Translations under genes and position numbers: made by a program | Assembly (NCBI RefSeq): GCF_048262375.1 | Contig: NZ_JBLXFE010000017.1 | Span: 581-64,580, forward strand | Length of the DNA: 64,000 nucleotides | DNA from: Roseovarius sp. | Lineage (GTDB): Bacteria > Pseudomonadota > Alphaproteobacteria > Rhodobacterales > Rhodobacteraceae | Reading direction: 5' to 3' | The notes under the pieces: model-generated | Database searches by the model: none | The model's input: only the letters and a program-made list of their open reading frames with translations | What the model was told of the DNA's origin: nothing | Shown here: piece by piece, positions 38,637-62,222 of the stretch | Position numbering within the stretch: position 1 is the first letter of the stretch | Layout of the letters: every line of letters starts with the position of its first letter

Positions 38637-40445
38637 ATGCAGGCGACAGGCAGTTCGCAACCCCTCGCGTTGCGGCGGGCAGACTTCCCGACTCTTATTG
38701 AGGCTCTCGACTATGCAGCCAAGGGTGAGACCGGGGTCAATTTCTATAACGCCCGCGGAGAACTGTACGCAAGCTCCACCTATGCCGATCTTCAGGCTGA
38801 TGTGATCGAACTTGCACATCGTCTTCTGAGCTTGGGTGTCGAGCCGGGTGGGCGGGTTGGCCTTGTTGCAGAAACCTCACCGCATTTCGTACGGTTCTTC
38901 TGGGCCTGCCAGTATGCCGGGCTTGTTCCGGTTCCGTTGCCCGCCACGATGCACATTGGGGGCCATGCGGGCTATGTCGCGCAATTGCGGGGGCTGATCC
39001 AAAACTGTGGTGCGACGGTTGCGATGGCCCCGACCGAGTGGATGAGCTTTCTTGAGGAAGCCACGGCAGGCTCTGATCTGACCTTTGTTGGCACGCCCGA
39101 GGATTTCGACAGTCTTGCGCCTTCGGCACAAGACCTGCCACCGGTATCGCCCGACAGCATCGCCTATATTCAATATACCTCGGGCAGCACCCGCTTTCCG
39201 CGCGGCGTGGTCATCGACCATGCGACCGTGCTCGCCAACATCAATGATATGGCGACCCACGGGCTCAAGATGAATGACCGGGATCGGTTTGGATCATGGC
39301 TGCCATTTTACCACGATATGGGCCTTGTCGCCTTTATCATGATGCCGATGGCCACTCAGCGTTCCGTCGATTTTCTGGGAACGCAGGATTTCGCCATGCG
39401 TCCGCGCAAATGGCTCGAGATGATGTCGACCAATCAGACAACCATCACCTCCGGACCTCCCTTTGGCTATGATCTCGCCGCGATGCGGGTGCGTCCGAGC
39501 GATGCCGAACAGTGGGATTTGAGCGCGCTGCGCGTTGCCTGCGTCGGTGCTGAAATGATCAATCCCGAGCCGCTGAAACGCTTTGCCGAAGCGCTCGCGC
39601 CGTCGGGGTTCAAATCGACCGCGTTTCTGCCCTGTTACGGCATGGCTGAATGTTCTCTTGGCATCAGCTTTGCCGGTCTGGATGAAGAGTTGAACATCGA
39701 CTATGTCGATGCGGAACAGATGCAGCAAGACAGCGTTGCCCAACCGCTCGATCCGCAGGACGCCGTCAAATCCAAGCGCCGCGTTGCGCGTTATGTGGAT
39801 TGCGGTGCGCTATTGCCCAGCTTTGAAGTGTCGGTTCGTGATGAAAACGGCACGCCGCTTCCTGAACGTCAGGCCGGGGTCATTCATCTGCGCGGTCCAA
39901 GCGTGATGAGCCGGTATTTCCAGGACGAGGCCACCACTCAGGAATGCCTGAGCGCGGATGGCTGGCTCGACACCGGCGATATTGGATACATGGCGGACGG
40001 GCGGCTGTTTTTGACCGGGCGTCAAAAGGACATGATCATCATCCACGGCCGTAACATCTGGCCCGAGGATCTGGAATATCTGGCAAAAACTCAGCCGGGC
40101 GTCAATTACACCGACGCCGCAGCCTTCTCGGTGCCCTCCGAAGTGGACCAGCAGGAAACGGCGGTTCTGGTGGTGCAATGCCGTGAGCGCGACGAGATCA
40201 AGCGCGCGCGTCTGAGCAAAACCATCGCGTCCTTGGTGCGCTCCGAATTCGGTATTGATTGCGTCATCGAACTGGTGCCGACACGCACGTTGCCCCGCAC
40301 ATCTTCGGGCAAGCTGGCACGGGCTCGGGCGCGGCTCGACTTCCTTGACAGACGCCGTGCCGCCAAAATCCAAGTCCAGCCGGAACCTATCGAAAGCCTG
40401 CCTGTAGAGCAGCAGGGCAGGGCGCCGATCCGTTACATCGCATGA
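38637..40445 (+). CDS. Fatty acyl-AMP ligase / acyl-ACP synthetase for sphingolipid synthesis (AasR-like)
   Basis: QYTSGSTRFPRGV, SWLPFYHDMG, CYGMAE, DTGDIG, GRQKDMIIIHGRNIWPEDLE and PRTSSGK. First gene of the aas-epimerase-acp-spt operon. ATG 38637 has an AAGGA RBS; the track start is 38586. Confidence 0.85.
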   Translation: MQATGSSQPLALRRADFPTLIEALDYAAKGETGVNFYNARGELYASSTYADLQADVIELAHRLLSLGVEPGGRVGLVAETSPHFVRFFWACQYAGLVPVPLPATMHIGGHAGYVAQLRGLIQNCGATVAMAPTEWMSFLEEATAGSDLTFVGTPEDFDSLAPSAQDLPPVSPDSIAYIQYTSGSTRFPRGVVIDHATVLANINDMATHGLKMNDRDRFGSWLPFYHDMGLVAFIMMPMATQRSVDFLGTQDFAMRPRKWLEMMSTNQTTITSGPPFGYDLAAMRVRPSDAEQWDLSALRVACVGAEMINPEPLKRFAEALAPSGFKSTAFLPCYGMAECSLGISFAGLDEELNIDYVDAEQMQQDSVAQPLDPQDAVKSKRRVARYVDCGALLPSFEVSVRDENGTPLPERQAGVIHLRGPSVMSRYFQDEATTQECLSADGWLDTGDIGYMADGRLFLTGRQKDMIIIHGRNIWPEDLEYLAKTQPGVNYTDAAAFSVPSEVDQQETAVLVVQCRERDEIKRARLSKTIASLVRSEFGIDCVIELVPTRTLPRTSSGKLARARARLDFLDRRRAAKIQVQPEPIESLPVEQQGRAPIRYIA

Positions 40446-41404
40446 ATGGACCCGTTGCGGTAACGGGTGCATCAGGCTTTGTCGGGCAGGCCCTGATCGG
40501 GCAGCTACTTGCTGCGGGTCGATCGGTGCGCGCGCTGGTTCACCGGCAGCCGCTGACAATCAGCCACCCGGATCTGGAAACGGTTACGGGTGGTTTGTCG
40601 GACGAGCGCGCCGTGGCGCGGTTGCTGGACGGGGCAGGGGCGGTGGTCCATGTCGCAGGACGGGTGCGTGGCCGCACCGATGCCGATTTTCTTGTGGTGA
40701 ATGCCAAGGGCGTGTCTACGGTCGCGCGGGCTGCATTGGCCTCTCAGTCCGTGACCCGGCTGATCCTGATTTCCTCATTGGCCGCGCGCGCGCCGCACCT
40801 GTCGCCCTACGCCGCCAGCAAACGCGCGGGCGAAGACCGGCTGTCGGCGGCAACCATGACCACAGATCTGTCCACGGCCGTATTGCGCCCGCCGGCAGTC
40901 TATGGTCCCGGTGACCGTGAACTGGTGCCGCTCTTTCTGATGATGGCGCGTGGCCTCAGTCCGATGCCAAGCGTACCGAATGCGCGCGCCTCATTGCTGC
41001 ATGTGGATGACCTTGCGCAAGCGATTGTCAAACTTCTGGACAGCACCGCGCAGGGTACTTATGAACTCCACGACGGGCATGGATTGGGGTATAGCTGGGA
41101 CGAGATTGCTACCATCGTCGAAGGCGTCGCAGGGCGGGGTCGCGGCTGGCGTTTCAGGATACCCGAGACCGCACTAAGATCCGTCGCCATGGTCAATATG
41201 CTTGGCGCGCGCCTGTTTGGGTACATGCCGATGCTGACACCCGGCAAGGTTAACGAATTACGCCATCCGGATTGGGTGTGCGACAACACCGAAATTAGCC
41301 GCGCCACAGGCTGGCAGCCGCTGATTCCTCTGGAGGACGGGCTATCTTCTTTGGTTAAGAGGGTGCCGTCGAAATCTGATAAGGGCATATCGAATGTCAC
41401 ATGA
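40442..41404 (+). CDS. NAD(P)-dependent extended SDR, CerR-like ceramide/3-keto reductase
   Basis: TGASGFVG, SSLAA, YAASK (YxxxK) and LRPPAVYGPGD. Overlaps aas upstream and acp downstream. Confidence 0.8.
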   Translation: MNGPVAVTGASGFVGQALIGQLLAAGRSVRALVHRQPLTISHPDLETVTGGLSDERAVARLLDGAGAVVHVAGRVRGRTDADFLVVNAKGVSTVARAALASQSVTRLILISSLAARAPHLSPYAASKRAGEDRLSAATMTTDLSTAVLRPPAVYGPGDRELVPLFLMMARGLSPMPSVPNARASLLHVDDLAQAIVKLLDSTAQGTYELHDGHGLGYSWDEIATIVEGVAGRGRGWRFRIPETALRSVAMVNMLGARLFGYMPMLTPGKVNELRHPDWVCDNTEISRATGWQPLIPLEDGLSSLVKRVPSKSDKGISNVT

Positions 41405-41660
41405 GACCCAAGACCTCGAACAAGAGATCATGCAGACGCTGTTTCAGCGCCTTGCCAAGTTTCCGATCAAATCTGGCGAATTGACCGCAGAAACAAGCCT
41501 TGTGGCCGATATGAGCCTCGACTCGATCAACATGATGGAACTGCTGATGGAGGTGGAAGACACCTTTGACGTCAGTTTCCCGTTGAACATGATGGCCAAT
41601 GTCACCACGGTCCAAAACCTCGCCGATCAAATCAAACAACTCGTTGAAAACAAATCATGA
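41394..41660 (+). CDS. Dedicated acyl carrier protein (AcpR-like)
   Basis: 88 aa acidic protein with LDSINMMEL (phosphopantetheine Ser) and FPLN. Stop overlaps the spt start. Confidence 0.9.
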   Translation: MSHETQDLEQEIMQTLFQRLAKFPIKSGELTAETSLVADMSLDSINMMELLMEVEDTFDVSFPLNMMANVTTVQNLADQIKQLVENKS

Positions 41661-42874
41661 GCATTTCAGAACGCTTCGCCGAACTGGCGCATCTGCGTGA
41701 CGCATTGGGCGCCGTCGAGGCAGACCCGAGCCGGATCGTCATGCAAAAAATCCTGTCCTCAACCGAGGCGGTGATTGGCAACCGTCCCACGATCCTCGTT
41801 GGCACCAACAACTATCTTGGCCTGACCTTTGATCCAACAGTCCTTGAGGCGGCCACGTTGGCCATGCACGAGCAGGGCAGTGGCACCACCGGATCGCGCA
41901 TGGCCAATGGCAGTTTTGCTGGCCATGCCGCTCTAGAGCGCGAATTTGCAGAGTTCTATGGCGTTCCGTCGGCCATGATCTTTTCAACCGGTTACCAGAC
42001 CAACCTTGGCCTTTTGATGGCCATTCTCCGACCGGGCGACAAGGTGGTTCTCGACTCCCACAGCCATGCCTGTATCTATGACGGCTGCCGCATCAGTGGC
42101 GCGGATTTTATGGCTTTCCGGCACAATGATCCCGACGATCTGCGCAAGCGGCTCAGACGCCTCGGAGCCGAGGCCAAAGGCGCGCTCGTGATTGCAGAGG
42201 GACTCTACAGCATGCTGGGTGACGTGGCCCCGCTGGCGGAACTCTGTGCCATTGCCAAGGAATACGGCGCATGGTTCATGGTCGATGAGGCCCATTCCTT
42301 TGGGGTTTATGGTGATAGGGGGCTGGGGCTCTGTGAAGAGGCTGGCATTCTGGATCAGGTCGATTTCATCACCGGCACATTCAGCAAGAGCCTTGCCTCT
42401 CTCGGCGGCTTCTGTGTGAGCCGCCATCCCGAGATGCAATTGCTACGCTATGGCAGCCGCCCGTATATCTTTACTGCCTCATCCAGCCCGGCCAACATCG
42501 CCGCCGCCGATGCCGCGCTCCGGGCGATCCGTACCCGGCCAGAGCTCAAGGCAAAGCTCTGGGCCAATGCCGAACGCCTCTATGACGGCCTGAAGGCCGC
42601 AGGCTATGAGCTGGCCGCCTCGGTCAGCCCGGTTATCGCGGTGCGCGTGCCATCAAGAGAAGAGGGTGCGCGGATATGGAACGCGCTTTTGGCCGAAGGT
42701 GTCTATGTCAATCTGGTATTGCCACCGGCAGCGCCCGAAGGTGAGGCGTTGCTCCGTTGCAGCATGAGTGCCGCGCATAGCTTTGAGCAGATCGACACGA
42801 TTGTGGCGGCGTTCAAGCATGTCTCGGCCAGTGCCGAAATCCCCACCACCAGCCAGAGTGCCGGCGCGCATTAG
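41657..42874 (+). CDS. spt: Serine palmitoyltransferase (bacterial homodimeric type)
   Basis: GTNNYLGLTFDP, GSGTTGSRMANG, FSTGYQTNLG, SHACIYDG, EGLYSMLGDVAPL, DEAHS, GTFSKS (PLP Lys), RPYIFTAS and YVNLVLPPAAPEG..LLRCS. Collinear with my recollection of Sphingomonas SPT, and adjacent to an ACP gene. Confidence 0.88.
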   Translation: MSISERFAELAHLRDALGAVEADPSRIVMQKILSSTEAVIGNRPTILVGTNNYLGLTFDPTVLEAATLAMHEQGSGTTGSRMANGSFAGHAALEREFAEFYGVPSAMIFSTGYQTNLGLLMAILRPGDKVVLDSHSHACIYDGCRISGADFMAFRHNDPDDLRKRLRRLGAEAKGALVIAEGLYSMLGDVAPLAELCAIAKEYGAWFMVDEAHSFGVYGDRGLGLCEEAGILDQVDFITGTFSKSLASLGGFCVSRHPEMQLLRYGSRPYIFTASSSPANIAAADAALRAIRTRPELKAKLWANAERLYDGLKAAGYELAASVSPVIAVRVPSREEGARIWNALLAEGVYVNLVLPPAAPEGEALLRCSMSAAHSFEQIDTIVAAFKHVSASAEIPTTSQSAGAH

Positions 42875-42879
42875 GCATT

Positions 42880-42904: not shown

Positions 42905-42912
42905 TAGACCCC

Positions 42913-43890
42913 ATGACGGTAAGTATGGCAATGGCAATGCAGGCCCCCAAAGACCCCAAGTCGCGAGCAGGGGCAATGCTGGCGCATCTGTCGGACCCGC
43001 ACCTGCCGTTGTCCGGTGGCGTGCCGCTGCGCGCCGTGCTGAACAAGCGCCTGCTTGGCCTCTTGTCGTGGCATTTGAAACGGCACCGCCGCCATCGGCC
43101 TGAAACACTGACTCGGCTGATCGCAGACCTGCGGTGCCAGTCCCCTGATCTGATCGCGGTGACCGGGGATCTGACCAACCTTGGCCTGGACAGTGAATAC
43201 CGCGCGGCCCGCACTTGGCTAGAAGGGCTGGGCGATCCACGCCATGTCATGGTCATTCCCGGCAATCACGAGGCGCTGATTGACGGCGCCTGGGACCGTG
43301 GGGCGGCATCTTGGCAACCCTATTGGCAAGGCGATGAGGCCCTTCGGACCACGGATGTTGCACAGGCCTTTCCCGTCTTGCGCCGACGGGGCCCGCTGGC
43401 CCTGATTGGCACCTCAAGTGCCATTGCCACGCCCTTGGGGTTTGCCTCAGGCGAAATGGGCAAGGCTCAGCTTGATCGGCTTGCTGCCTTGCTACGGCGC
43501 ACCCGCAGCGAGGGGCTGTTTCGGGTGCTCATGATCCATCACCCACCGCTCGACGGGACGGTCGTGGCGCGCAAACATCTGCGCGACGGCGCAGCCCTCC
43601 GAGCCTTGCTGCAAACCGAGGGCGTCGAGCTGGTCCTGCATGGCCACAGCCACAGAAGCCATCAGCAGAGCTTGACAACGCGCGACGGGTCTGTGCCGGT
43701 GATCGGGGTTCCTTCGGCCTCTTCGATGCACCACGAGGCGGCGGCCTATAACCTTTACAATATTGTTCCTACAGATACGGGATGGAGCGTGACCCTCACA
43801 ACCCGACGTTTGGGCGAGGGTCAGAAAATGGAGACGGGTCGATGCGTCAGTTTGACAATACCGCGCCCGCACGCGGCATGCGCGTCATGA
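42913..43890 (+). CDS. Calcineurin-like metallophosphoesterase
   Basis: All five motifs are present: HLSDPH, TGDLTN, PGNHE, HHP and LHGHSH. Confidence 0.9.
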   Translation: MTVSMAMAMQAPKDPKSRAGAMLAHLSDPHLPLSGGVPLRAVLNKRLLGLLSWHLKRHRRHRPETLTRLIADLRCQSPDLIAVTGDLTNLGLDSEYRAARTWLEGLGDPRHVMVIPGNHEALIDGAWDRGAASWQPYWQGDEALRTTDVAQAFPVLRRRGPLALIGTSSAIATPLGFASGEMGKAQLDRLAALLRRTRSEGLFRVLMIHHPPLDGTVVARKHLRDGAALRALLQTEGVELVLHGHSHRSHQQSLTTRDGSVPVIGVPSASSMHHEAAAYNLYNIVPTDTGWSVTLTTRRLGEGQKMETGRCVSLTIPRPHAACAS

Positions 43891-44011
43891 CACGGCCCCT
43901 CGATACCGGTTCAAGACCGATTGCGGCAGGCAGTTTGACCGCATGCCGCAACTACAGGATAACTGTGCATCCGGTGCGCAATTCGTCCGACCAAGACACG
44001 AAAGTCCTCTC

Positions 44012-45715
44012 ATGCGTTTGATGCTGAACCTTTTCCGCGCCTATCCGATGGCCAGTTTCCTCATGGTGCTGGCCCTGTTCTTTTCGGGTTTGGCCGAGGG
44101 GCTGGGTGTTTCCGCGATGCTGCCCATGCTCAAGATCGCGCTCTATTCCGACCAGTCTGCGGCCACGGCGGAACCTCCGGGCGCGATGGAGCAGGTGGTG
44201 CTGGATGCCCTCGCTTGGGCCGGAATTCCCGCCACGCTGGGTGCTTTGCTGATATTGATCGTGGTTGCGGCTTGTTTCAAGGCGGTCTTGCTCTTGGTCG
44301 CACAGCGTCAGGTCGGCTATACCGCCGCGCAGGTCGGAACCGATCTGCGGCTGCAAATCCTGCGCAACATGATGCGCAGCCGCTGGCACTTTTTCCTGCA
44401 CCAGCCGACGGGCAAGCTGACCAACGCGCTCGCAACCGAGGCACAACGCGCGGCAGATGGCTATATGTTCGGTGCCACTGCACTCACCTTCTTCATTCAG
44501 GCGCTTGTGTATGCCTCTGTCGCCGTTTTGATATCGTGGAAGGCGACACTGCTTAGCCTGATTGGCGGGATCGTGATCATCGGACTGTCGCATTTTCTGG
44601 TGCGCATGACCCGCAAGGCGGGCAAGAAACAAACCGATCTGATGGTCTCGTTGATGTCGCATCTGACAGACACCCTGCAATCGGTCAAACCGCTCAAGGC
44701 AATGGCGCGTGAACATCTCGCGGATGAATTGCTGAAGCACGAGACCAACCGGCTGAACAAGGCGCTGCGCCGTCAGGTGCTGGCAAGTGCCGCTCTCAAT
44801 TCCGGTCAGGACCTGATGTTCGTGATGATCATCGCCTTTGGCGTTTATCTGGCCTTGGGCGTCCTCTCGATGGATTTTGCCACCGTGCTCATTCTTGCGG
44901 TGACCTTGGGGCGGGCCTACAATTTTTTAGGCAAGGTTCAAAAACAGTATCAGAAACTCGTCCAATGTGAGAGCGCCTATTGGTCGCTGAAGGAAACCAA
45001 CAGCCGCGCTGAAGCCGAACAAGAGCACCTTGGCGGGCATATAGCACCCGCGCTGAATACCGGAATATCGCTGCGCGACATCGCATTTTCCTATGACGGG
45101 CATTCGGTGTTTGCCGGTCTCGAACTAGACATTCCGGCGCATCAGATCACCACGCTGGTTGGCCCTTCGGGTTCTGGCAAAACCACGGTTATTGATCTTG
45201 TCATCGGTCTGTTGCGGCCCGGTGGCGGGGAAATCACCGTGGATGGCGTTCCGTTTGAGGAAATAGACCTTAAGGCGTGGCGGCGGATGGTGGGATATGT
45301 GCCACAAGAAACCGTGTTGCTCCACGACAGCATCCTTCACAATGTCTCGCTTGGGGACCCCAAGATTTCGACGGCGCGGGTCGAGCAAGCCTTGAAAAAG
45401 GCCGGGGCATGGGAGTTCGTGAACGATCTGCCCGAGGGCGTTCATACTGTAGTCGGAGAACGCGGCGGACGGCTATCCGGTGGACAGCGTCAAAGGGTTG
45501 CCATTGCACGCGCCTTGATCAACGAGCCGCAACTTCTGATCCTTGATGAGGCCACCAGCGCCCTCGATCCAGAGAGCGAGGCCGCAATCATCGAGACCCT
45601 GCGCGCGCTCCGCGAACACCTCACGATCCTTGCGATCACGCATAACAGTAGCCTCTCGGACGCGGCGGATATCGTGCACCGTCTTGCCCCTTCGGCGGGG
45701 ATCAGGGCTGGGTAA
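44012..45715 (+). CDS. ABC exporter half-transporter (TMD+NBD), MsbA/PglK-like lipid or glycolipid flippase
   Basis: Six-TM N-terminal half; GPSGSGKT, LSGGQRQR and LILDEATSALD. Start at ATG 44012 (MRLMLNLFRAYP). Confidence 0.88.
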   Translation: MRLMLNLFRAYPMASFLMVLALFFSGLAEGLGVSAMLPMLKIALYSDQSAATAEPPGAMEQVVLDALAWAGIPATLGALLILIVVAACFKAVLLLVAQRQVGYTAAQVGTDLRLQILRNMMRSRWHFFLHQPTGKLTNALATEAQRAADGYMFGATALTFFIQALVYASVAVLISWKATLLSLIGGIVIIGLSHFLVRMTRKAGKKQTDLMVSLMSHLTDTLQSVKPLKAMAREHLADELLKHETNRLNKALRRQVLASAALNSGQDLMFVMIIAFGVYLALGVLSMDFATVLILAVTLGRAYNFLGKVQKQYQKLVQCESAYWSLKETNSRAEAEQEHLGGHIAPALNTGISLRDIAFSYDGHSVFAGLELDIPAHQITTLVGPSGSGKTTVIDLVIGLLRPGGGEITVDGVPFEEIDLKAWRRMVGYVPQETVLLHDSILHNVSLGDPKISTARVEQALKKAGAWEFVNDLPEGVHTVVGERGGRLSGGQRQRVAIARALINEPQLLILDEATSALDPESEAAIIETLRALREHLTILAITHNSSLSDAADIVHRLAPSAGIRAG

Positions 45716-46880
45716 TCGGCTCTGAGGCCAGCGTCTGCGCGCCCTCCTCGGGCGGCGCCAACCCCATGAGCGCATTGATCCGCGCGACGGCGCGCGCCAT
45801 GTCGCTTGGCGGTGGCGTCCCTTGGGGCGCCGCCACCGGCTCTCCCAGCCAGTTCATTCTGCCCGAACGCACCAGCCTGAGATGCATCTGGCTGATATCG
45901 CGTGACAGATGTTTCCAACCCCATCGCATCAGCCCCCGGTATGCCAAGGCGCCAAGGGTCAAATCGGGCCGGTCCGTGTCCTGTCGGCGCAGGGCCTCCG
46001 CCTGTTGCGTCTCTCCGAGCGCCAACAGCGTATCGCGGCGCATGCTGAAAGAGCCCGCGCTCAGATCGAACATATGCACGGGTTTCCCGGTGGCATAGGC
46101 CTCTGACAACATCGAGATGCTGTCGGCCGTCACGATGATCTCATCGGCGAGGGCGAGAAACCCGAGATAGGGGTTATCTGGATCACCGGGTGTCCAGCGA
46201 TACAGATGCATGGGCACCTCTTGCTGCGCGGCAAAGGCGTCAATCGCTTGGTGCGGGGTTCGCGCGCTCGAGCTGACCAAGAGCGATCCACCACGCTTGC
46301 GCGCCAGATCCAGCGTATCGCGCAAGAGCCGCTGCGCCGCCCGTGAACCAAAGGCATAGGGGCCGCTTGATCCACCGATATTCACGGTCAGATAGGGCCG
46401 CGGCAGATGGGCAAGATCTTGGGCCCAGCGGGCCTTGGCCTCGGCCAGACGACGCGGTCCCAGCGGATGCAGGGGCAGGGCGTTGCGCAGAACATTCGGC
46501 CCGTCGGGGACCCGGTATTGCGGTGTGGTGATCACCAGATCGAACAGCGCTGGATCGGCCCACAGACGTCCCAGAAACACCAGCCGGGTGCGACCGCCCG
46601 ATTGATCGCGGATCCACCGGCACACAGGTTCGTTGCGCATTGCCATGGACAGCACAAGATCGGGCCATGGCGGCGCAAGCGCATCAGAGGCCGGCACATC
46701 GATGCCCCGCAGATCCTTGCCGCGCAACAGGTTGGTGCGCATCTCGAATTTGCGGTATTTGAGGGTTTTGATCTCATAGGGCCAACCCAGCCCGTCGGCC
46801 AAGGCGCGCAATTGGGTTTTCTCGCCCGATCTGTAGGCATCCACCACCCAGACACGCGGGCTCATTATTGGCTCAGACAT
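45702..46880 (-). CDS. ELM1/GtrOC1-family putative glycosyltransferase (paralog 1)
   Basis: RSGEKTQLRALADGLG, AMRNEP, ITTPQY, IGGSSG, SSSARTP, NPYLGFLALADEIIVTADSISMLSEA. Confidence 0.8.
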   Translation of the reverse strand: MSEPIMSPRVWVVDAYRSGEKTQLRALADGLGWPYEIKTLKYRKFEMRTNLLRGKDLRGIDVPASDALAPPWPDLVLSMAMRNEPVCRWIRDQSGGRTRLVFLGRLWADPALFDLVITTPQYRVPDGPNVLRNALPLHPLGPRRLAEAKARWAQDLAHLPRPYLTVNIGGSSGPYAFGSRAAQRLLRDTLDLARKRGGSLLVSSSARTPHQAIDAFAAQQEVPMHLYRWTPGDPDNPYLGFLALADEIIVTADSISMLSEAYATGKPVHMFDLSAGSFSMRRDTLLALGETQQAEALRRQDTDRPDLTLGALAYRGLMRWGWKHLSRDISQMHLRLVRSGRMNWLGEPVAAPQGTPPPSDMARAVARINALMGLAPPEEGAQTLASEPITQP

Positions 46881-49523: not shown

Positions 49524-49761
49524 TGTGACTCGACTTCTTCATGTGCAGTGTGGATACTCGCCACGTTATTTGAGGCTAGGTGCTGGAATTGCAAGCAGTT
49601 TCCGTGATTTGTCCAGCCCGTGCGCCTCTGGGGTCAGGGATGGGTATGCGCCGCCACCTCAGGTTGCCGTCAGGGTGGGGCGTGGACAGTCTCATGGTAT
49701 CTGTTATCTGCCATCCGCGCATATCAAGGGCAGGATCCATTCACTGCAAGAAAGGCACTTC

Positions 49762-52794: not shown

Positions 52795-52866
52795 AGAGGG
52801 TATCGCTCGGTCTTTGTATGGGTAATTTTGTCCGGATGGGGTACAGGTGCCAGTCTGTGACATGGA

Positions 52867-55173: not shown

Positions 55174-56133
55174 TTAGCGAAACACCCCGCGCCGGTAGAG
55201 ATGGCGCATGAATCCCCAGATATGGATCAGTGGACGCCGGCGGACCTTATCGGGGATTTCAACCACCTGCCCGGAATGACGCGAGAGTTTCCACGCAAGG
55301 TAATCCAGCCCGCCCTCAAAGGTGAACAGCCCCTTGATCAACCGCGCCACCGAGAGCGCCTTGCCCTGAATGCGTCGCACCGCCCATAGCGCCGGGGCCA
55401 GACGACGTGCCCAAACTCCGGCGCGGCTGTGGTAAACCAGCGTGCCGTCACGCTCTTCAATCTGCAGAACGCCACCAAGGCGCGGCAACAGTCCCCGCGT
55501 CAGAGATTCGAAAAACGCGCGCCCATGTCCCGCCAGTTCAGCGGCCCGGCCCTGCCGCTCGGCGCGCAATTCGGTGGCATAGCTCAACGCCAGCGCACCT
55601 TGCCATAAATCATCGAGCCCGCCTTCGGGGGGCAATGCCGGAACCGCGCGGCGCAAGAGGGTTTCTCCCGCCTGAAAAAATGCCGCGTGCAAACGCTGCC
55701 GGGTCGCCTCAGAGTCGCACCAGACCGGTTTGACCGGCTGTGCGAACCGCCCCCAAAGATACGAGTGAAACCAGCCGGGGCCAGTGCCGCGCTCAAATTG
55801 CGACAGGCTGAGCACCGCGTATTTGCAACGCACCGTCTGAGAACCCAGTGAAGTTTCCAGATAATAGACATTCGGCGGCAGCAACCGCCCCCCGAGACGC
55901 AGCCAAAGCCGCGGCTCGGCACGGGGTGTGCTCTCGACCAAGACATAGAAATCAACCAACCCTTCCATTAGCTCGGTGCTGCGCAGACAGGACCCATACA
56001 GAATCACGGCCTGCAATCCAGCCCCAAACCGGCATTCCAACGCGGTCATCAACGCGCGCAGCGCCGGAGAACTCTCCAGCGTGGGGCCTTCGGGGGTAGG
56101 ATATTCAGCCGGAAAGGGCTGCACGCCGGTCAT
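55174..56133 (-). CDS. Tam41/Mmp37-like nucleotidyltransferase (CDP-lipid synthase candidate; CpgC-like)
   Basis: AVILYGSC...GLVDFYVLV (Pol-beta-type NTase motif), PPNVYY, KYAV, WGRFAQP, SYATELRAE and FTFEGGLDYLAWKLSRHSG. Directly downstream of the DAGK gene. Confidence 0.7.
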   Translation of the reverse strand: MTGVQPFPAEYPTPEGPTLESSPALRALMTALECRFGAGLQAVILYGSCLRSTELMEGLVDFYVLVESTPRAEPRLWLRLGGRLLPPNVYYLETSLGSQTVRCKYAVLSLSQFERGTGPGWFHSYLWGRFAQPVKPVWCDSEATRQRLHAAFFQAGETLLRRAVPALPPEGGLDDLWQGALALSYATELRAERQGRAAELAGHGRAFFESLTRGLLPRLGGVLQIEERDGTLVYHSRAGVWARRLAPALWAVRRIQGKALSVARLIKGLFTFEGGLDYLAWKLSRHSGQVVEIPDKVRRRPLIHIWGFMRHLYRRGVFR

Positions 56134-56210: not shown

Positions 56211-57197
56211 CTAGCGGGGCCGCAAGAACCGGATCGGGCCCTCTGCGGTAATCACCAGCGGAGCAGCGTCACCAGCGGTGGCGAACAGCTCGCCATCAAG
56301 ATTGATCTCGCCTTCAAAGCTCAGCGCGATGCGCTCCGCGTGAAAACTCTCATAGCCATTCTGCGCGGTCACATGCCGGTTCGGATGTCCGCGCAGGATC
56401 GACGGAAAGGCGCGGGCAAATCGCAGCGCGCCGCCCCGGATTGCGGTCACTCCGATAGGCGCATCCGCCTTGGCCCAAAACGGCCTGATCCCAAGAAACA
56501 GCCGCCCTAGCGTGCTCGCGACAAGGATCAGCATCGGGGCTTCCTCGCGTGTCACCGGCGCGTCTTTGGCCCCCTGCAAGGTCATCGCCACATGGGTGGG
56601 TTGATAAAACCGGGGGTCTTGACGGATCAGGCCCCAGACCGAACGGATCAGGATCATCCCAAGGCTGATTTCGCCGCCCAAACCCCGTGAATGCACTTCT
56701 TTATGTGCAAATTTTGTGGCCTGCATGATGGCCCCGGTGCCCAGAAACATGCCATAGCGCGCATGCCCATCGGCCGCGCCCTCAACCCGCATGATGTGGC
56801 GTTCGCGAATGTCGCCGTTCAGCGGCGCCCCCCGATCAAGCCACCTGAAAAACCGCTGCAAGGCGCGCCGATGTGTTGACGCGGTGCCAATATCACCCGC
56901 CGTCATATTGGCGGTGCCGCCGGGCAGGATGATGATCAGCGGCAGATTGTCAGCGCACCAGTGGTTGAGGATCATGCCCAACGCGGCAGCAATCGTGCCG
57001 TCCCCCCCGTTGATCGCTACCACGTCGGGCCGCATTGCGGCCAACTGCGGAACAATCTCCTCTGCCTCTTGCGGCGAGCGGGTAACATAATGGCGGACCT
57101 GAGGATAGGCTGACAACCGCGCCTCGATCCGGGCCTGCCATTTGCGGTTATTGCCGCTGGTTGGATTGCTGATCACACAGACGCGCGTCTGGCTCAT
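56211..57197 (-). CDS. Diacylglycerol/sphingosine kinase-family lipid kinase (ceramide kinase CpgB-like)
   Basis: SNPTSG, INGGDGT, LPGGTANMTA and NLDGE. Start at ATG 57197. Confidence 0.87.
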   Translation of the reverse strand: MSQTRVCVISNPTSGNNRKWQARIEARLSAYPQVRHYVTRSPQEAEEIVPQLAAMRPDVVAINGGDGTIAAALGMILNHWCADNLPLIIILPGGTANMTAGDIGTASTHRRALQRFFRWLDRGAPLNGDIRERHIMRVEGAADGHARYGMFLGTGAIMQATKFAHKEVHSRGLGGEISLGMILIRSVWGLIRQDPRFYQPTHVAMTLQGAKDAPVTREEAPMLILVASTLGRLFLGIRPFWAKADAPIGVTAIRGGALRFARAFPSILRGHPNRHVTAQNGYESFHAERIALSFEGEINLDGELFATAGDAAPLVITAEGPIRFLRPR

Positions 57198-57198
57198 G

Positions 57199-58350
57199 TC
57201 AAACCCTCGACAAAAGCTGATCAATTCGGCCTAGGATGCGCGCGACGTCCTCATCCGTGGCCGACAGCGCGGGACGCGTCGTAGACGGGCGCTCCTTGTC
57301 GTCACCCATCCAACTGGCCAGACCTCGATCCACAAGAATCTGGTGAAACCGCGGGAAATGCCGGGTTTGTTGCATCAATCGCAGGTGATAGAGCCCCCGT
57401 GCAAACGCAAGGCGAAGAGACTCGGCAAGCCCCGTATTCCGGCGGGGTTGAAACATCCAAGCCGCCGCGCGGCGGCGCGCATCATCCAGCGTGCCCAGCC
57501 AGCCAAACGGCAGTGGCAAAATTTCGAGCGGTTTGCCAAGACGGGCCACCTCGACCTGCATCGAGATACTGTCGCCGGTTACAATGAACCGATCCGCCAG
57601 CGCCAAAAGACCGGTATACGGGTTCTCGCTCTCGGGTTGGCCCCAGTCAAACACCCGCAGCGCGTCGGGAAACCCTGCACAGATCCGGTTTAGAAATCCG
57701 TCAGGGGTGCGCCGTGATCCGACGACATAGGGCGTCCCGCCTGTCTCCAGGACCTGCGCAATCCGGGCGCGCAATCGCTCTTCCAACTCGGCGTTGTAGA
57801 CAAACGGGCTGGTCGGACCGCCAATCAGAAAAACCACCAATGGACGCGGCAGATCAGCCCAGGCCGCCTGCCAGTTTTTGCGCCCCGACTCGAGCCGTTC
57901 CGGGCTGATCTTCATCAGGGGCAGATCAATCTGCATCACATTCTCAAAGGGTGCGGGCAGGGTCTCGGCGCTGGTCACGATCAGATCGAATTTCGCCATC
58001 TGATGCGAAAACCACCCGGCAGGTTTGCCCACCAGCACGATCCGCGTGCGCCCGCCCGATTGCTTCTTGATCCAGAGCGCCACATTTGCCGGGCGCCGTC
58101 CCCGCGTCAGGATCAGATCCGGCCAAGGCGGCTCAATAGGATCGCTGAGGCTCAGATCGACATGATGCAGGGTCGCGCCGACGCGCGGCTTGCCATGCAC
58201 ATAGCGCGGCAGCATCTCCAGATGCCGCAATTCCGAGGTCCAGCCGCGCTGCTGCGCCAGGGCCTCGGCGACAATATCGACCTGCGCATTATCGCCACGC
58301 TTGTCACTCAGAACCCGCCAGATGCGGGGGGGGGCCTTGGGCTGGCTCAT
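57199..58350 (-). CDS. ELM1/GtrOC1-family putative glycosyltransferase (paralog 3)
   Basis: DKRGDNAQVDIVAEALA, RGRRPAN, IGGPTSP, GSRRTP, NPYTGLLALADRFIVTGDSISMQVEV. Confidence 0.8.
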   Translation of the reverse strand: MSQPKAPPRIWRVLSDKRGDNAQVDIVAEALAQQRGWTSELRHLEMLPRYVHGKPRVGATLHHVDLSLSDPIEPPWPDLILTRGRRPANVALWIKKQSGGRTRIVLVGKPAGWFSHQMAKFDLIVTSAETLPAPFENVMQIDLPLMKISPERLESGRKNWQAAWADLPRPLVVFLIGGPTSPFVYNAELEERLRARIAQVLETGGTPYVVGSRRTPDGFLNRICAGFPDALRVFDWGQPESENPYTGLLALADRFIVTGDSISMQVEVARLGKPLEILPLPFGWLGTLDDARRRAAAWMFQPRRNTGLAESLRLAFARGLYHLRLMQQTRHFPRFHQILVDRGLASWMGDDKERPSTTRPALSATDEDVARILGRIDQLLSRV

Positions 58351-59330
58351 TCTGCCGTTTTATCCGCGGATGCAGCCGGCCCATAGCCGTAGACCGGGTC
58401 CAGCCGTTCGGCCACCAGCGCGTCGATCACCTCGATCTGCGCATCCTCGAAATAATCCCGGTAGCCGCCCACCTTGGCGCGGCGCGTCTTGTAGCTGTCG
58501 GGGTTGCTCTGATCGCCGGGGGCCATGCGCGCGCCACTGAGGCGAAAACTGTTCTCGGCCTCTTTCTTTTTCATGTTTTCGAAATCGGCGTAGTTCACCG
58601 CCTCTTGAATGACGGTGGCATCGGCCGGAATATCAAGAAACCGGGCGACCTGTGTCAGGGTCTCATGCGGATTCGCGCGCATATCCTCGTAACGAATGAG
58701 GCTCAGCGCGCGCACCTTGTCGGTCTCACGCGCCCAGATGTTCATAAAGTCGATAATCTTGGGCAGCCCGCCCCCCTCGTGCAGCACAAAGTCATAGATC
58801 GAACTGTCGTCGCCATGCGGCAGGTATTCGTTCAAGAGCTTCTTCTCGGAGGGCATCCGAAAGCGCCACTGGAAAAACTGCGACACCGCCACATCGCGCG
58901 GATCGCGCATCATCAACAGCACTTTCTTGTCGTAGAAATCGACCTTGCTGTCGGTGTGGCCTGTGTAATCGCCGATATAATTGTCATGCGTAAAGAACAG
59001 CCTCGGCACCCGGCTGTCCATGTTGTGGAAATTGTCGAACCCGATCAGAATATCCTCGGGCAGGTCATAAACCTGCTGATAAAGCCGCGAAATCATCACC
59101 CGCAGCCATGTGCGCCCGCTTTTGCCAAATGAGACCACCACGGCATCGGCCCGTTGCAGGCTGGCATATTGCTCGCGCCCGCGCATCTGCCGCTCGGCGC
59201 GGATGCGTTCGGCCTGATCGGCCCCCTTCAGATCCATCTTCAACTTGAGAAGACGCCGACTGGCCTTGCGCCAGACGACCTTGCTTGCCTCAGGAAACGA
59301 CGCACGCAAAAGACGAAATGTATCGCTCAT
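58347..59330 (-). CDS. PAPS-dependent sulfotransferase (Sulfotransfer_1 family), paralog 2
   Basis: SFGKSGRTW, MRDPRDVAVS, RYEDM, FENMKKKE and RRAKVGGYRDYF. ATGA overlap with ELM1 paralog 3. Confidence 0.9.
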   Translation of the reverse strand: MSDTFRLLRASFPEASKVVWRKASRRLLKLKMDLKGADQAERIRAERQMRGREQYASLQRADAVVVSFGKSGRTWLRVMISRLYQQVYDLPEDILIGFDNFHNMDSRVPRLFFTHDNYIGDYTGHTDSKVDFYDKKVLLMMRDPRDVAVSQFFQWRFRMPSEKKLLNEYLPHGDDSSIYDFVLHEGGGLPKIIDFMNIWARETDKVRALSLIRYEDMRANPHETLTQVARFLDIPADATVIQEAVNYADFENMKKKEAENSFRLSGARMAPGDQSNPDSYKTRRAKVGGYRDYFEDAQIEVIDALVAERLDPVYGYGPAASADKTAE

Positions 59331-59545: not shown

Positions 59546-61510
59546 TCACAGCCTGTTGGACAGCGGCCCCGCCAACGCAGCCGCAATTGTTGGTCCGAAC
59601 AGATGCTCGCCGCAGGGGCTCAGATGGTCCACATCCCAGAATGTCAGACAGTCCTGCTGCACCAGCGTATCCGCGTCAAACGCCAGCGCGTCAAACAGCG
59701 AAACGTAGCGATAGGCTGACTGGTCAGCCGCCAGCGCCTTGATCTCGTCTTCCAGCAGCGAAAAGTGATCAAGCGCGACCGGGTTGAACCGCAAACGATC
59801 CGGGCTGTAGTTTTCCGGGTTGTTGAGATCCAGACGCGCCTCGGCAAATGGGCCAAGCCACACCACGTCCAACTCCTCGTGAAACTTGGCAAGATATTCC
59901 GAAGTTTTCGCGATATTGTCTTGCGCAAAGCGCGCTCTGACGCCTGTCTCGAACGCCGCATCACTGTCGCCCTCATTGCGATGATCTAGGATGTAATGCG
60001 ATCCGGAGACGTGAAAAATCACTTGAGAGATGGCGGCGCGGTGCTGTTCCAGAAACGGCACTACCGCATCATAAGAGCATTTGGCCTTGTGCTGATAGGG
60101 GCGGCACCCGCCGCGCGTGAGGCCCACAAGAAACGGCAGACGTTCGGTGCTCCGCAGCGCGTTATAGATGTTCTCGGCATGGGAATCGCCCAGCACGAAC
60201 ACCGCTGGCCCGTGTTCCGCAGCGCAGGTTTCCAGCCGACTGGTAAAGTCATCATCCAGCTCTTCGGCCCGGAACCGGCATCCATCATCCGCAACACGGG
60301 ATCTGGTGGCCTGCGGGCTGAACTGTTCGAAATTGGCGCGCGCCGCCGCATCAAGCCTGTGCTCAAGATAAAAGGCGCGGAAACCCTCGGTTTGCAGGCC
60401 TGTCAGCCCGATACCGCCCAGAATCGCCATGCAGAGCGCCGCCGCCCCAAAAAGACGGCGCGGCGCTAGATCATGCATACGCCGAAACGGTCGCTCGACA
60501 TAGCGCCAGCTCAGACAGGCGATCACAAAGGCCAACACGCAGACGCCGAACAACAGCGTCGCATCATCGCGCCCGGTTCCGATCCGGGTAAACACCAAGA
60601 GCGGCACATGCCACAGATAAAGCGAGTAGCTGACCAGTCCGACAAAGACCACCGGACGCCAGCCAAGGATCTGGCCCGCAAGGCTCTGGGGGGTGGCAAA
60701 GGCGATGATCAGAACCGCGCCCAAGCAGGGCAAAAGCGCCGCCACCCCCGGAAACGCGGTCTCGTTGTCATAGGCAAAGACCGCCGTCAGGATCATTGCC
60801 AACCCCAACAATGCGGCAAGGCGAAAGCGTCCGCTGTCGCGCAGGTCCGTGCCACGCGCGCTGGTCAGCCAATAGGCCGTGAGCGCCCCCGCCATCAGCT
60901 CCCAGAGCCGCGTGTGCAGCAGGAAAAACGCGCGCGCACCCTCGCCGCGCCCAATATGCCACTGTGCAAATCCAAGACTGACAAGCGCGAGCGCAAAAAA
61001 CAGGGCCGCCTGACCCTTTGGTCCCGCCCGCCAGCTCAGCAGCACCGCCATTGGAAAGAGCAGATAGAACTGTTCCTCGACCGAGAGGCTCCAATTGTGC
61101 AAAAGCGGCTTCAACTCGGCTGCTGTCGCGAAATATCCGCTCACCTCCAGAAAATAGGTATTCGCAAAGAACACCGTCGAGGCCGCGATACTGCCCGAAA
61201 ACTCCTTCATCGCCGAAGGATCAAGCAAGGCCCAAGCGATTGGATAACTCACCGCCATCATCACAAACAGCGCCGGAAAGATCCGGCGAATCCGACGGCC
61301 ATAGAATCCGGTCAGGGTGAAATTACCGGCCCGCCGCTCGCTCAGGATAATCGAGGTGATGAGATAGCCGGAAATGACAAAGAACACGTCTACCCCGACA
61401 AACCCACCGGGAAAGCCCGCAATCCCGGCATGGTATAGCACCACGGGCAGGATCGCGATCGCGCGCAGACCATCGACTTCGGGCCTGTATTTCATCATCG
61501 TAATGCTCAT
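59546..61510 (-). CDS. OafA-type O-acyltransferase (Acyltransferase_3 TM domain plus periplasmic SGNH domain)
   Basis: YRPEVDGLRAIA, GGFVGVDVFFVISGYLI, HNWSLSVEEQFY, SYSLYLWH; SGNH motifs LGDSHA and DVDHLS. Confidence 0.92.
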   Translation of the reverse strand: MSITMMKYRPEVDGLRAIAILPVVLYHAGIAGFPGGFVGVDVFFVISGYLITSIILSERRAGNFTLTGFYGRRIRRIFPALFVMMAVSYPIAWALLDPSAMKEFSGSIAASTVFFANTYFLEVSGYFATAAELKPLLHNWSLSVEEQFYLLFPMAVLLSWRAGPKGQAALFFALALVSLGFAQWHIGRGEGARAFFLLHTRLWELMAGALTAYWLTSARGTDLRDSGRFRLAALLGLAMILTAVFAYDNETAFPGVAALLPCLGAVLIIAFATPQSLAGQILGWRPVVFVGLVSYSLYLWHVPLLVFTRIGTGRDDATLLFGVCVLAFVIACLSWRYVERPFRRMHDLAPRRLFGAAALCMAILGGIGLTGLQTEGFRAFYLEHRLDAAARANFEQFSPQATRSRVADDGCRFRAEELDDDFTSRLETCAAEHGPAVFVLGDSHAENIYNALRSTERLPFLVGLTRGGCRPYQHKAKCSYDAVVPFLEQHRAAISQVIFHVSGSHYILDHRNEGDSDAAFETGVRARFAQDNIAKTSEYLAKFHEELDVVWLGPFAEARLDLNNPENYSPDRLRFNPVALDHFSLLEDEIKALAADQSAYRYVSLFDALAFDADTLVQQDCLTFWDVDHLSPCGEHLFGPTIAAALAGPLSNRL

Positions 61511-61544
61511 GTTACCTGTCTGGTGCCCGCTCAGCCGACGCGGA

Positions 61545-62222
61545 TCACGCCATCCGTTCTACGGTCTGATAGGCCTTCTTGCGGTTCTTCGCGAAGCCAA
61601 ACTTCTTGCGCCGCCCCGTGGCGGTCGAGGTGATGAGCCGAAAGGACACATCCGTGTGCCGCATCGAAATGGCATGAAACAGCCCCGCCCACCAATCCGG
61701 CGACCGGACCGTGCAATGCACATTCTGCCCATTGGGCAGAACCTTGACCGCCGGGTAACAGGCAACATTGGCGTAGAGAAACTTGCGCGCGTAGCTGAAC
61801 ATCTCATCGACGATCCAAGGCACATCCGGGGTGGTGATATGTTCCAGAACATCGGTGCAGATCACACCGTCATACTGGCAATCCGGCAATTCCTTGAATG
61901 GCTCATGCCCCGGATCGTAACAGCGGATGTCCACACCCCCCCAATATTCCTGAACACTGGGCACCACGACACCCTTTGAGATCGGAACATCGCGCAAGGT
62001 ATAGCCCACACCTTTGCCCGCTCCATAATCAAGAATGCTGGTCGCGCCGGTGCGCTCGATCATCTCTTTGATACCGGGGGCATGCCGGATCAGCATCTTG
62101 CCCGGAAAGGTCTGTTTGCCGGATTTTCCGGCAGACGCCTCACCGTCTTCGTGCAGCGTCTCATACATGGCAACCATGTCGAGGTATTCGGGGCTGGGAT
62201 TGCCGCGCGTATATGACGTCAT
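61545..62222 (-). CDS. Class I SAM-dependent methyltransferase
   Basis: ILDYGAGKG, CYDPG and ICTDVLEHI. Start at ATG 62222 (MTSYTRGNPSPEY). Confidence 0.85.
   Translation of the reverse strand: MTSYTRGNPSPEYLDMVAMYETLHEDGEASAGKSGKQTFPGKMLIRHAPGIKEMIERTGATSILDYGAGKGVGYTLRDVPISKGVVVPSVQEYWGGVDIRCYDPGHEPFKELPDCQYDGVICTDVLEHITTPDVPWIVDEMFSYARKFLYANVACYPAVKVLPNGQNVHCTVRSPDWWAGLFHAISMRHTDVSFRLITSTATGRRKKFGFAKNRKKAYQTVERMA

Follow-up and report, generated by a model that had tools for sequence, protein, structure and literature searches.

Has a Roseovarius lineage that lost the early genes for lipid A put a sphingolipid in its place? The question is raised by a gene cluster in a 64,000-nucleotide stretch of Roseovarius sp. 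DNA (assembly GCF_048262375.1, contig NZ_JBLXFE010000017.1, positions 581 to 64,580), the whole of which we refer to as the window. Between window positions 38586 and 62381, an open reading frame (ORF) listing combined with Pfam and NCBIfam profile searches resolves 21 genes, closely spaced and arranged in six blocks of alternating strand, with seven overlapping gene junctions, remaining gaps mostly shorter than 80 bp and a coding density of 97%. An earlier note on this stretch had described 21 genes of the same families in six blocks; this description is confirmed, with strands as given there and gene ends agreeing within a few codons, and the outer limits that it set (38637 and 62222) reflect alternative start choices. 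Its proposal of an exported, acylated, sulfated glyco- or phospho-sphingolipid, possibly resembling lipopolysaccharide (LPS), fits all of our findings. We think it rather probable that the product is an anionic sphingolipid carrying several acyl chains, sugars and sulfate and that it takes over from lipid A; its chemistry we infer.

Because the cluster holds LpxL-type genes, we checked the genome for the lipid A pathway. Pfam hidden Markov models (HMMs) detected no LpxC or LpxB in this genome, and tblastn with E. coli queries detected no LpxA, LpxB, LpxC or LpxD, where the same queries, as a positive control, match sister Roseovarius genomes at 1e-43 to 1e-76. HMMs, tblastn and deletion junctions together place none of the early Raetz enzymes LpxA, LpxC, LpxD, LpxI and LpxB in the genome; LpxH, of which LpxI is the alphaproteobacterial counterpart, was not queried. 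The junctions are clean deletions at two loci. Sister genomes carry bamA-ompH-fabZ-lpxA-lpxI-lpxB, whereas this genome and two near-complete relatives continue from bamA-ompH-fabZ into an unrelated ATP-binding cassette (ABC) gene. Sisters likewise carry ftsZ-lpxC, and here about 245 bp without any remnant stand instead of the 1.2-kb lpxC segment. The early lipid A pathway is lost at the level of the genome.

The loss follows the cluster through the genus. Across 60 Roseovarius members and the present genome, with a close homologue of the ceramide synthase bCerS taken to mark cluster-bearing genomes, LpxC is absent from 11 of 11 cluster-bearing genomes versus 1 of 50 others (Fisher p = 2.9e-11). 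The single cluster-less genome without an LpxC match (G060) is only 81% complete as assembled and retains LpxA, LpxI and LpxB. Roseovarius D22-M7, R. autotrophicus SHN287, MBR-6 and an HGW metagenome-assembled genome (MAG) all carry the cluster and no LpxC. Canonical LpxL, present in one copy in cluster-less genomes, is gone from most LpxC-less genomes, in which only the cluster copies are left. LpxC-less genomes fall in at least four lineages interspersed with LpxC-positive ones, as placed by a two-gene tree of WaaA and LpxK and not by a species tree. Outside the genus, 3 of 11 tested Halieaceae with the cluster lack any match to LpxA, LpxB, LpxC, LpxK and WaaA, which makes a second loss of lipid A, independent of the first, in the Gammaproteobacteria. 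These three (G106, with loci L013 and L120; G110, with L026 and L118; and G111, with L028 and L119) keep LptD and a KdsB-like gene. A separate observation concerns two genomes that have lost lpxA and lpxB and contain an LpxI-like ORF (G113:C22:15473-16048, about 340 bp from fabZ, and G009:C26:7421-8239), 32-33% identical to sister LpxI; this may be a relic or a repurposed gene.

Ceramide synthesis by itself shows no such link to loss. Roseovarius genomes with only a distant, Caulobacter-type bCerS (G001, G012, G030, G051 and G052) keep LpxC in five of five cases, and loss is therefore tied to the extended cluster and not to ceramide synthesis as such. This result bears on the idea of an indirect association, according to which an ordinary anionic lipid of the ceramide phosphoglycerate (CPG) type merely makes the loss tolerable, LpxK and WaaA are unrelated or moonlighting, and the tailoring genes are inessential. 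That idea draws on Caulobacter, where CPG-type lipids and fur inactivation suffice for survival without lipid A, and on the many genomes in which the cluster occurs and lipid A is kept. It also has to accommodate a ratio of nonsynonymous to synonymous substitution rates (dN/dS) of 0.04-0.08 for WaaA in the LpxC-less clade, a strong constraint on an enzyme of glycosyltransferase family GT30, whose sole function, to our knowledge, is the transfer of 3-deoxy-D-manno-oct-2-ulosonic acid (Kdo) to a lipid A precursor. We hold an indirect association to be quite unlikely.

We examined how far the cluster extends beyond this genome. The tailoring set of two LpxL, a hydroxylase, three ELM1, the GT8-like gene and two sulfotransferases is kept in 15 Roseovarius genomes and also in Halieaceae, Porticoccaceae and Thiogranum. 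In a scan of the genome collection, the nearest bCerS relatives are those of Roseovarius sp. MBR-78, D22-M7, MBR-6, R. autotrophicus SHN287 and two MAGs; next come those of about 20 Halieaceae, at 54-57% identity closer than any other Alphaproteobacterium (43-45%), which makes an older transfer between Halieaceae-like Gammaproteobacteria and Roseovarius likely. A block consisting of aasR-cerR-acp-spt-phosphoesterase-exporter, ELM1-LpxL-hydroxylase-LpxL and bCerS-MobA is preserved in the Roseovarius relatives and in about 20 Halieaceae loci. The second half of the cluster (sulfotransferases, ELM1b and ELM1c, GT8-like, Tam41-like and kinase genes) adjoins the first half or lies close to it in every Roseovarius that possesses that half, and its genes are present in 7 of 7 Halieaceae genomes tested, together with additional sulfotransferase and GT8-like paralogues. 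Thiogranum longum (L124) and a Porticoccaceae genome (L125) have the same gene set plus LptF/LptG paralogues inside the cluster. In the Porticoccaceae locus these paralogues are fused into one 712-aa protein, and the Thiogranum locus has a Wzy_C (O-antigen-ligase-like) gene and a GT4 gene among its sphingolipid genes.

Throughout these rearranged orders, in both Alpha- and Gammaproteobacteria, the tailoring genes stay interleaved with the ceramide and head-group genes. This persistence in two classes is our chief argument that the tailoring enzymes very probably act on the ceramide lipid, as their families and co-conservation indicate. The opposite view would have two unrelated products share the locus: free roseoceramides for membrane remodelling under iron limitation, and a separate sulfated glycolipid, capsule or exopolysaccharide made by the LpxL, hydroxylase, ELM1, GT8-like, sulfotransferase and OafA genes. 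In the present cluster an LpxL, hydroxylase, LpxL and ELM1 series is interleaved between the exporter and bCerS, and the kinase and Tam41-like head-group genes lie between glycosyltransferase and sulfotransferase genes, which speaks against such a division. The window's cluster lacks a polysaccharide polymerase, a Wzx flippase and an initiating phosphoglycosyltransferase, and tailoring genes are likewise missing altogether from the Roseovarius genomes without ceramide genes (G005 and G003). What speaks for two products is that only free ceramides have been chemically detected in Roseovarius, that sulfotransferases, GT-A and GT-B enzymes and OafA are common in polysaccharide loci, and that in MBR-78 and the Halieaceae genome G110 the two cluster halves sit apart, on different contigs or loci. 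On balance we consider two products improbable.

A single ceramide-based product remains our preferred reading, and two results strengthen the functional proposal of the earlier note: ceramide and tailoring genes stay together in two classes of Proteobacteria, and cluster-bearing genomes have lost the lipid A pathway repeatedly. By the same comparisons, what the note called an island is not private to this genome: it is long-resident and common to a subset of Roseovarius and many marine Gammaproteobacteria. Neither is it a compositional island, because its GC content (0.596) equals that of the genome (0.605). Recent horizontal acquisition was considered and rejected, with GC at the genome average and the cluster proteins only 65-90% identical across the syntenic clade.

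The ceramide core begins on the plus strand with an AasR-like fatty acyl-AMP/acyl carrier protein (ACP) ligase (38586..40445; PF00501, E 4e-57; NF006624, above cut-off at 732 bits), which shares 71-86% identity with its counterparts in Roseovarius relatives and 50-56% with those in Halieaceae. A CerR-like NAD(P)-dependent reductase with a short-chain dehydrogenase/reductase (SDR)/epimerase fold follows (40442..41404, plus strand; PF01370, E 1e-25); its ORF overlaps the AasR stop by 4 bp, is syntenic with Caulobacter-type loci (L050, L053 and L076) and is 36-42% identical to the genes at the same position in Caulobacter and Brevundimonas loci. Next on this strand, an AcpR-like dedicated ACP (41394..41660; PF00550, E 1e-10) is placed between cerR and spt, as CC_1163 is, and serine palmitoyltransferase (Spt; 41657..42874) scores 580 bits against the equivalog model NF047599 (cut-off 500), with the pyridoxal phosphate-lysine motif TFSK intact at residue 241. 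The ACP (PF00550) and the NF006624 fatty acyl-AMP ligase share the spt operon, with overlapping stop and start codons. The fifth gene encodes a bCerS-like GNAT N-acyltransferase (49510..50913, plus strand; PF00583, E 2e-7, residues 303-449) that is 43-45% identical to the protein at the bCerS position of Caulobacter and Brevundimonas loci, and we found 596 relatives of it. Its first ~77 codons (49510-49740) are unconserved at the protein level in most relatives and overlap the divergent LpxLb start by 14 bp; the true start therefore probably lies near 49740, downstream of the annotated one. By gene content, the Caulobacter-type ceramide module (Spt, AcpR, AasR, bCerS and CerR) is complete. An MsbA-like half-transporter ABC exporter resembling RccF (43943..45715, plus strand) combines fused membrane and ATPase domains (PF00664 and PF00005), scores under the MsbA equivalog cut-offs and is 58-61% identical in Halieaceae clusters.

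The closest described system belongs to the same genus. R. tolerans EL-164 and R. mucosus DSM 17069 produce roseoceramides, chiefly a dihydroceramide that combines a C14 base with a C12 N-acyl group (Ganley & Seyedsayamdost 2025, PMC11789144). This finding makes outdated, for Roseovarius, the earlier note's remark that sphingolipids are not typical Roseobacter lipids. The responsible rcc cluster comprises the five ceramide genes, a phosphodiesterase (RccE) and an MsbA-like transporter (RccF); Spt was verified in vitro, transcription is constitutive and the product rises ~20-fold under iron limitation (PMC11789144). By its published description it has the same seven genes as the cluster studied here (aasR, cerR, acp, spt, cerS, RccE and RccF). 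That work covers these seven genes and free ceramides only: the other 14 genes are absent from it, and it makes no mention of complex derivatives, LPS, lipid A, sulfotransferases or LpxL (PMC11789144). The ceramide step is established in these two close relatives, and by analogy AasR would here load a medium-chain fatty acid onto AcpR, Spt would condense it with serine, bCerS would N-acylate the product and CerR would reduce it. The C12-C14 chains of the roseoceramides are within the range typical of lipid A acyl chains; such short chains fit a lipid A-like role but prove nothing.

Four further genes point to a phosphorylated head group. A metallophosphoesterase like RccE and CC_1158 (42913..43890, plus strand; PF00149, E 1e-16) is 42-46% identical to a gene in the Caulobacter and Brevundimonas loci. 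A MobA/CofC-like nucleotidyltransferase (50962..51783, plus strand; PF12804, E 4e-15), the only MobA-like nucleotidyltransferase of the cluster, always lies directly 3' of bCerS, corresponding to the position of CC_1153 relative to CC_1154. On the minus strand, a putative Tam41-like protein (55174..56133; PF09139 below cut-off, E 0.005) shares 31-41% identity with the kinase-adjacent gene in Caulobacter, Nitrosomonas and other loci, 31-34% within the Caulobacter clade, and is the counterpart of CpgC (CC_1161), itself Tam41-like (PMC11324152). The fourth gene encodes a DAGK-family lipid kinase (56211..57224, minus strand; PF00781, E 2e-15) that has a GGDG motif, is 25-32% identical in Caulobacter-type loci and is the counterpart of the ceramide kinase CpgB. 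The earlier note, correct about the families of the ceramide and tailoring genes, had not recognised these kinase, Tam41-like, MobA-like and phosphoesterase genes as counterparts of CC_1160, CC_1161, CC_1153 and CC_1158 (PMC11324152). The 21 cluster proteins include no CpgA-type CDP-alcohol phosphotransferase (PF01066) and no CpgD; the rest of the genome was not searched for either. Outside the window (contig C6:196707-198861), a further DAGK-family kinase (196707-197684), 66% identical to the cluster kinase, is encoded next to an LpxL-family acyltransferase that is 58% identical to LpxLb. This repeated pairing suggests that the kinase and the acyltransferase work as a unit.

In Caulobacter, five genes make ceramide, and CpgB (CC_1160), CpgC (CC_1161), CpgA (CC_1159), CC_1158, CC_1153 and CpgD (CC_1152) lead to CPG and CPG2 (PMC11324152, PMC12275187). 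Ceramide phosphoglycerate needs CpgB and CpgC there, and the diphosphoglycerate CPG2 needs CpgA and CpgD (PMC11324152, PMC12275187). By comparison with these genetics, the CpgB-like kinase of Roseovarius would yield ceramide-1-phosphate, and the Tam41-like, MobA-like and phosphoesterase proteins would build a head group of the ceramide-phosphoglycerate type. The anionic sphingolipids let Caulobacter survive lpxC deletion (PMC9393093). The Caulobacter CC_1152-CC_1168 locus and the present cluster share the five ceramide genes, the CpgB-type kinase, the Tam41-like CpgC, the MobA-like CC_1153 and the CC_1158 phosphoesterase, and there is also a link to iron and Fur; the Caulobacter product is an anionic sphingolipid that supports life without lipid A, as is proposed for the product here. 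Caulobacter has CpgA, CpgD and LptC2/F2/G2, which the cluster lacks, and the CC_1166 flippase, for which the cluster has an ABC exporter instead. The cluster in turn adds two LpxL genes, the hydroxylase, three ELM1 genes, the GT8-like gene, two sulfotransferases, OafA and the methyltransferase. Moreover, lipid A loss is the state of a laboratory mutant in Caulobacter but the natural state here.

Acylation genes make up the first part of the tailoring set. LpxLa (46873..47826, minus strand; PF03279, E 5e-36) is an LpxL-family acyltransferase with a variant HX4Q motif (HVGAWQ), and 21 of 21 orthologues (L002-L028) have HxGxWQ in place of the catalytic HX4(D/E) dyad; by this motif, the LpxLa orthologues are a conserved variant branch of the LpxL family. 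LpxLb (48555..49523, minus strand; PF03279, E 2e-41) has the canonical HX4E motif (HLANWE at residue 141), which its orthologues keep. Both proteins score below every NCBIfam equivalog cut-off. The gene between them encodes a fatty acid hydroxylase, a di-iron membrane enzyme of the FA2H/Scs7 type (47881..48528, minus strand; PF04116, E 2e-20), with four histidine boxes and an identity of 80-87% in Roseovarius and 58-63% in Halieaceae. The hydroxylase would put a hydroxyl on the acyl chain, and the two LpxL-type enzymes would attach ester-linked fatty acids.

Glycosylation would involve three ELM1 proteins and a protein of 316 aa. ELM1a (45702..46880, minus strand; PF06258, E 1e-56), ELM1b (52867..54000, plus strand; PF06258, E 8e-60) and ELM1c (57199..58350, minus strand; PF06258, E 7e-46) are GT-B glycosyltransferase-like; ELM1b shares 40% identity with ELM1a, and identity to the Halieaceae proteins is 56-59% for ELM1b and 44-51% for ELM1c. 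The AlphaFold model of ELM1a (pLDDT 82.6) finds its best Foldseek matches in MGD1 and MurG (GT28), enzymes that glycosylate lipid acceptors, followed by WaaG and GT9. The 316-aa protein (54033..54983, minus strand), the cluster's most conserved gene product at ~70-80% identity between Alpha- and Gammaproteobacteria, has no Pfam, NCBIfam or PDB match in profile and sequence searches, and its 4921 homologues are all labelled 'hypothetical' and are without a Pfam domain. Its AlphaFold model (pLDDT 79.5) retrieves WbbM, LARGE1, GlyE, LgtC and glycogenin at E ~1e-8, with a Foldseek probability of 1.0 but TM-scores of only 0.4-0.55 to GT8 structures, and D93-P-D95 is invariant at the expected DxD site. 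The earlier note's GT-A call for this gene agrees with the GT8-type GT-A model and has no counterpart in Pfam or PDB sequence searches; because of the latter, we describe the protein as having a predicted GT8-like fold and not as a demonstrated GT8 member. PDB sequence searches with the 316-aa protein, ELM1a and an ELM1 profile gave no meaningful match, and only predicted structure with Foldseek was informative. With ELM1a modelled as GT-B and the 316-aa protein as a GT8-type GT-A, the cluster holds, on these models, four glycosyltransferase-like enzymes, which would attach sugars.

Sulfation is predicted from two sulfotransferases of the 3'-phosphoadenosine-5'-phosphosulfate (PAPS) type. SulfA (51820..52860, minus strand; PF00685, E 9e-24) contains GKSGRTW and RRGKVGGYR and shares 47% identity with SulfB. 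Its 500-aa ORF (51820-53322) is really a sulfotransferase of ~310-346 aa that ends near 52750-52860 and does not overlap ELM1b; the true start is probably near 52750. SulfB (58347..59330, minus strand; PF00685, E 1e-25) matches cytosolic alcohol, hydroxysteroid and bile-salt sulfotransferases (SULT) among PDB sequences (E 6e-8). The PAPS-binding motifs (5'-PSB and 3'-PB: GKSGRTW and RR(G/A)KVGGYR) are present in both proteins, which would attach sulfate, and the genome has a CysC adenylyl sulfate (APS) kinase homologue (E 2e-38) for PAPS supply. Two last genes on the minus strand would complete the molecule in Roseovarius. An OafA-type O-acyltransferase with an AT3 membrane domain and an SGNH domain (59546..61510; PF01757, E 4e-32; PF19040, E 7e-12) is syntenic in genome G047 (74% identity) and was not seen in the Halieaceae clusters examined. 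A putative S-adenosylmethionine methyltransferase (61545..62381; PF13489, E 0.002, a weak match) is syntenic in G047 (82%) and MBR-78 (78%), and a homologue in a Kiloniellaceae cluster is 41% identical.

The late part of the lipid A pathway has had a different fate from the early part. An intact, adjacent waaA-lpxK pair and kdsB occur in all LpxC-less Roseovarius tested. In the present genome, LpxK (E 6e-38) has an intact P-loop and adjoins WaaA (PF04413, 84 bits), and KdsA, KdsB, KdsD and an lptF-lptG-lptD cluster are present as well. LptD was found in 18 of 18 genomes tested, including Halieaceae without any Lpx genes. Pairwise dN/dS within LpxC-less lineages is 0.04-0.26 for WaaA and 0.14-0.42 for LpxK, as low as, or lower than, between LpxC-positive genomes. 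Judged by these low ratios, WaaA and LpxK are functional in the LpxC-less lineages, although the usual substrates of both enzymes cannot be produced there. Two GT30 (WaaA-family) genes occur in LpxC-positive Roseovarius, one by lpxK and a stand-alone one of ~450 aa that is ~31% identical; the stand-alone copy is absent from every LpxC-less genome, and the lpxK-linked copy (C14:23553-25789 in the present genome) is under strong purifying selection. Two small ORFs lie directly 5' of waaA on the same strand (C14:26062-27221); one of them, of 139 aa, contains a CRTGTR motif that recalls cysteine phosphatases. The msbA-lpxJ-kdtA-lpxK operon of Caulobacter has the phosphatase-like ctpA as its neighbour.

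The retention of the waaA-lpxK pair and the Kdo genes under selection is a weak hint that these enzymes act on the new lipid or on one of its sugars. A bolder extension is that LpxC-less Roseovarius make a hybrid 'sphingo-LPS', in which a multi-acylated ceramide anchor takes over from lipid IVA as acceptor of LpxK and the GT30 Kdo transferase; ELM1 and GT8-like enzymes would then lengthen the molecule, which would be sulfated and leave by way of the MsbA-like and Lpt systems. We put this forward as a tentative possibility, with the odds somewhat against it. If true, sphingo-LPS would be a Kdo-containing, lipopolysaccharide-like molecule without a glucosamine backbone, and categorically new; as lipid A has been lost repeatedly in two classes, the cluster would on this reading represent a general way in which bacteria can evolve independence from lipid A.

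The retained and constrained LpxK, WaaA, KdsA/B/D and LptD/F/G would be explained most simply by a surviving acceptor like lipid IVA. Lipid A might then still be made by non-orthologous enzymes, with the cluster LpxL and ELM1 proteins or genes elsewhere rebuilding a glucosamine-type acylated backbone, LpxK, WaaA and Lpt acting as usual and the ceramide being a separate matter. No substitute is evident for the LpxA, LpxC and LpxD chemistry (UDP-GlcNAc acylation and deacetylation), even if ELM1 shares the GT-B fold class with LpxB and the conserved non-canonical HX4Q of LpxLa hints at a changed reaction. Three cluster-bearing Halieaceae have lost LpxK and WaaA too, which means that the cluster does not feed those enzymes there; MBR-78 and most Halieaceae possess both the cluster and a complete Raetz pathway. 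Survival of lipid A by this route strikes us as a long shot.

We return, then, to a sphingolipid that would stand in for lipid A, lpxA, lpxC, lpxD, lpxI, lpxB and canonical lpxL being deleted here and in nearly all cluster-bearing congeners. The MsbA-like exporter would flip this lipid, and the retained LptF/G/D would carry it to the outer leaflet. Several observations weigh against this account. The isolate MBR-78 has both the cluster and the full lipid A pathway, and 8 of 11 Halieaceae with the cluster keep LpxC; because most such Halieaceae and MBR-78 keep both, the cluster is compatible with lipid A and permits its loss rather than forcing it. The action of the tailoring enzymes on ceramide is deduced solely from co-localisation, no acceptor specificity being known for the ELM1, GT8-like, LpxL-paralogous and sulfotransferase proteins. 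The Tam41 (E 0.005) and methyltransferase (E 0.002) assignments are weak, and because the cluster has no CpgA-type or CpgD homologue, the head-group chemistry may differ from CPG. No Roseovarius sphingolipid beyond free ceramide is reported in the literature that we found. Finally, our assembly is a draft (93% complete, 59 contigs). As an explanation of the missing Lpx genes, an assembly artefact was rejected: the pattern recurs in 99-100%-complete genomes of 3-6 contigs, and the deletion junctions are visible.

Two further systems help to place the cluster. Sphingomonadaceae are Alphaproteobacteria naturally without lipid A, in which anionic glycosphingolipids exposed on the outer membrane replace LPS (as cited in PMC9393093). 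They represent a different lineage (the present cases being in the Rhodobacterales and, separately, in the Halieaceae) and differ in cluster architecture and tailoring: their head groups are glucuronosyl or galacturonosyl, whereas the genes described here predict phosphate, sulfate and extra acyl chains. Roseovarius, compared with sphingomonads by description only, also retains LpxK, WaaA and Kdo synthesis. The late steps of the Raetz pathway (LpxK, WaaA and LpxL/LpxM) and the glycosyltransferases of the lipooligosaccharide (LOS) core belong to the same families as proteins in, or retained beside, the cluster; we take PF06258 to include the LOS-core glycosyltransferase GtrOC1 of Acinetobacter, and LgtC of Neisseria to be a GT8 enzyme. 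The difference is that LpxA, LpxC, LpxD, LpxI and LpxB, which make the acceptor, are absent, and that the cluster LpxL copies are additional to the lost canonical LpxL.

The surroundings of the cluster add little. On its 5' side lie a Na/Pi transporter, an amidase, dehydrogenases, a branched-chain amino acid transporter and a molybdoenzyme, and on its 3' side a secreted RTX-repeat protein. These flanking genes were considered as pathway members and rejected, as no upstream or downstream neighbour has a link to the pathway. The RTX-repeat gene runs from window position 62438 through 64000 to the contig end and encodes a protein longer than 817 aa, whose N-terminal part is free of repeats and whose C-terminal part carries RTX-type GGxGxD calcium-binding repeats. 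The protein has no Pfam match over its first 521 residues, is syntenic with the cluster in genome G047 and has three paralogous matches elsewhere in the present genome.

How much of this is new can be stated fairly closely. The earlier note knew of no described bacterial pathway with this tailoring set, and we found no paper describing the set; the ceramide core was already known as rcc, the first seven genes. The literature searched contains none of the 14 further genes, the predicted lipid class or natural lipid A loss in these lineages, and no report of a bacterial sulfated sphingolipid was found. The ceramide core and the substitution of a sphingolipid for lipid A are known already; the 14 further genes and the natural loss in these lineages are, as far as the literature searched shows, new.

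Among Gram-negative bacteria, lipid A is regarded as essential and all but universal, with sphingomonads and spirochaetes as the textbook natural exceptions. The Roseovarius subset and some Halieaceae, abundant marine bacteria, would be natural cases in which a sphingolipid has been exchanged for lipid A, repeated several times and tied to one specific, widely distributed and so far uncharacterised gene cluster. Replacement and export are directly testable in cultured strains, namely R. autotrophicus SHN287, D22-M7 and MBR-6, which have no lipid A pathway, and MBR-78, which has both systems. The retained LpxK, WaaA, Kdo and Lpt genes raise the question of what their substrate is when the lipid A backbone cannot be made. 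The cluster also provides a function-level lead for three families without a characterised bacterial role, namely bacterial ELM1 (PF06258), the GT8-like family of ~4900 proteins and the HX4Q branch of LpxL, and it predicts that bacteria may make a sulfated sphingolipid.

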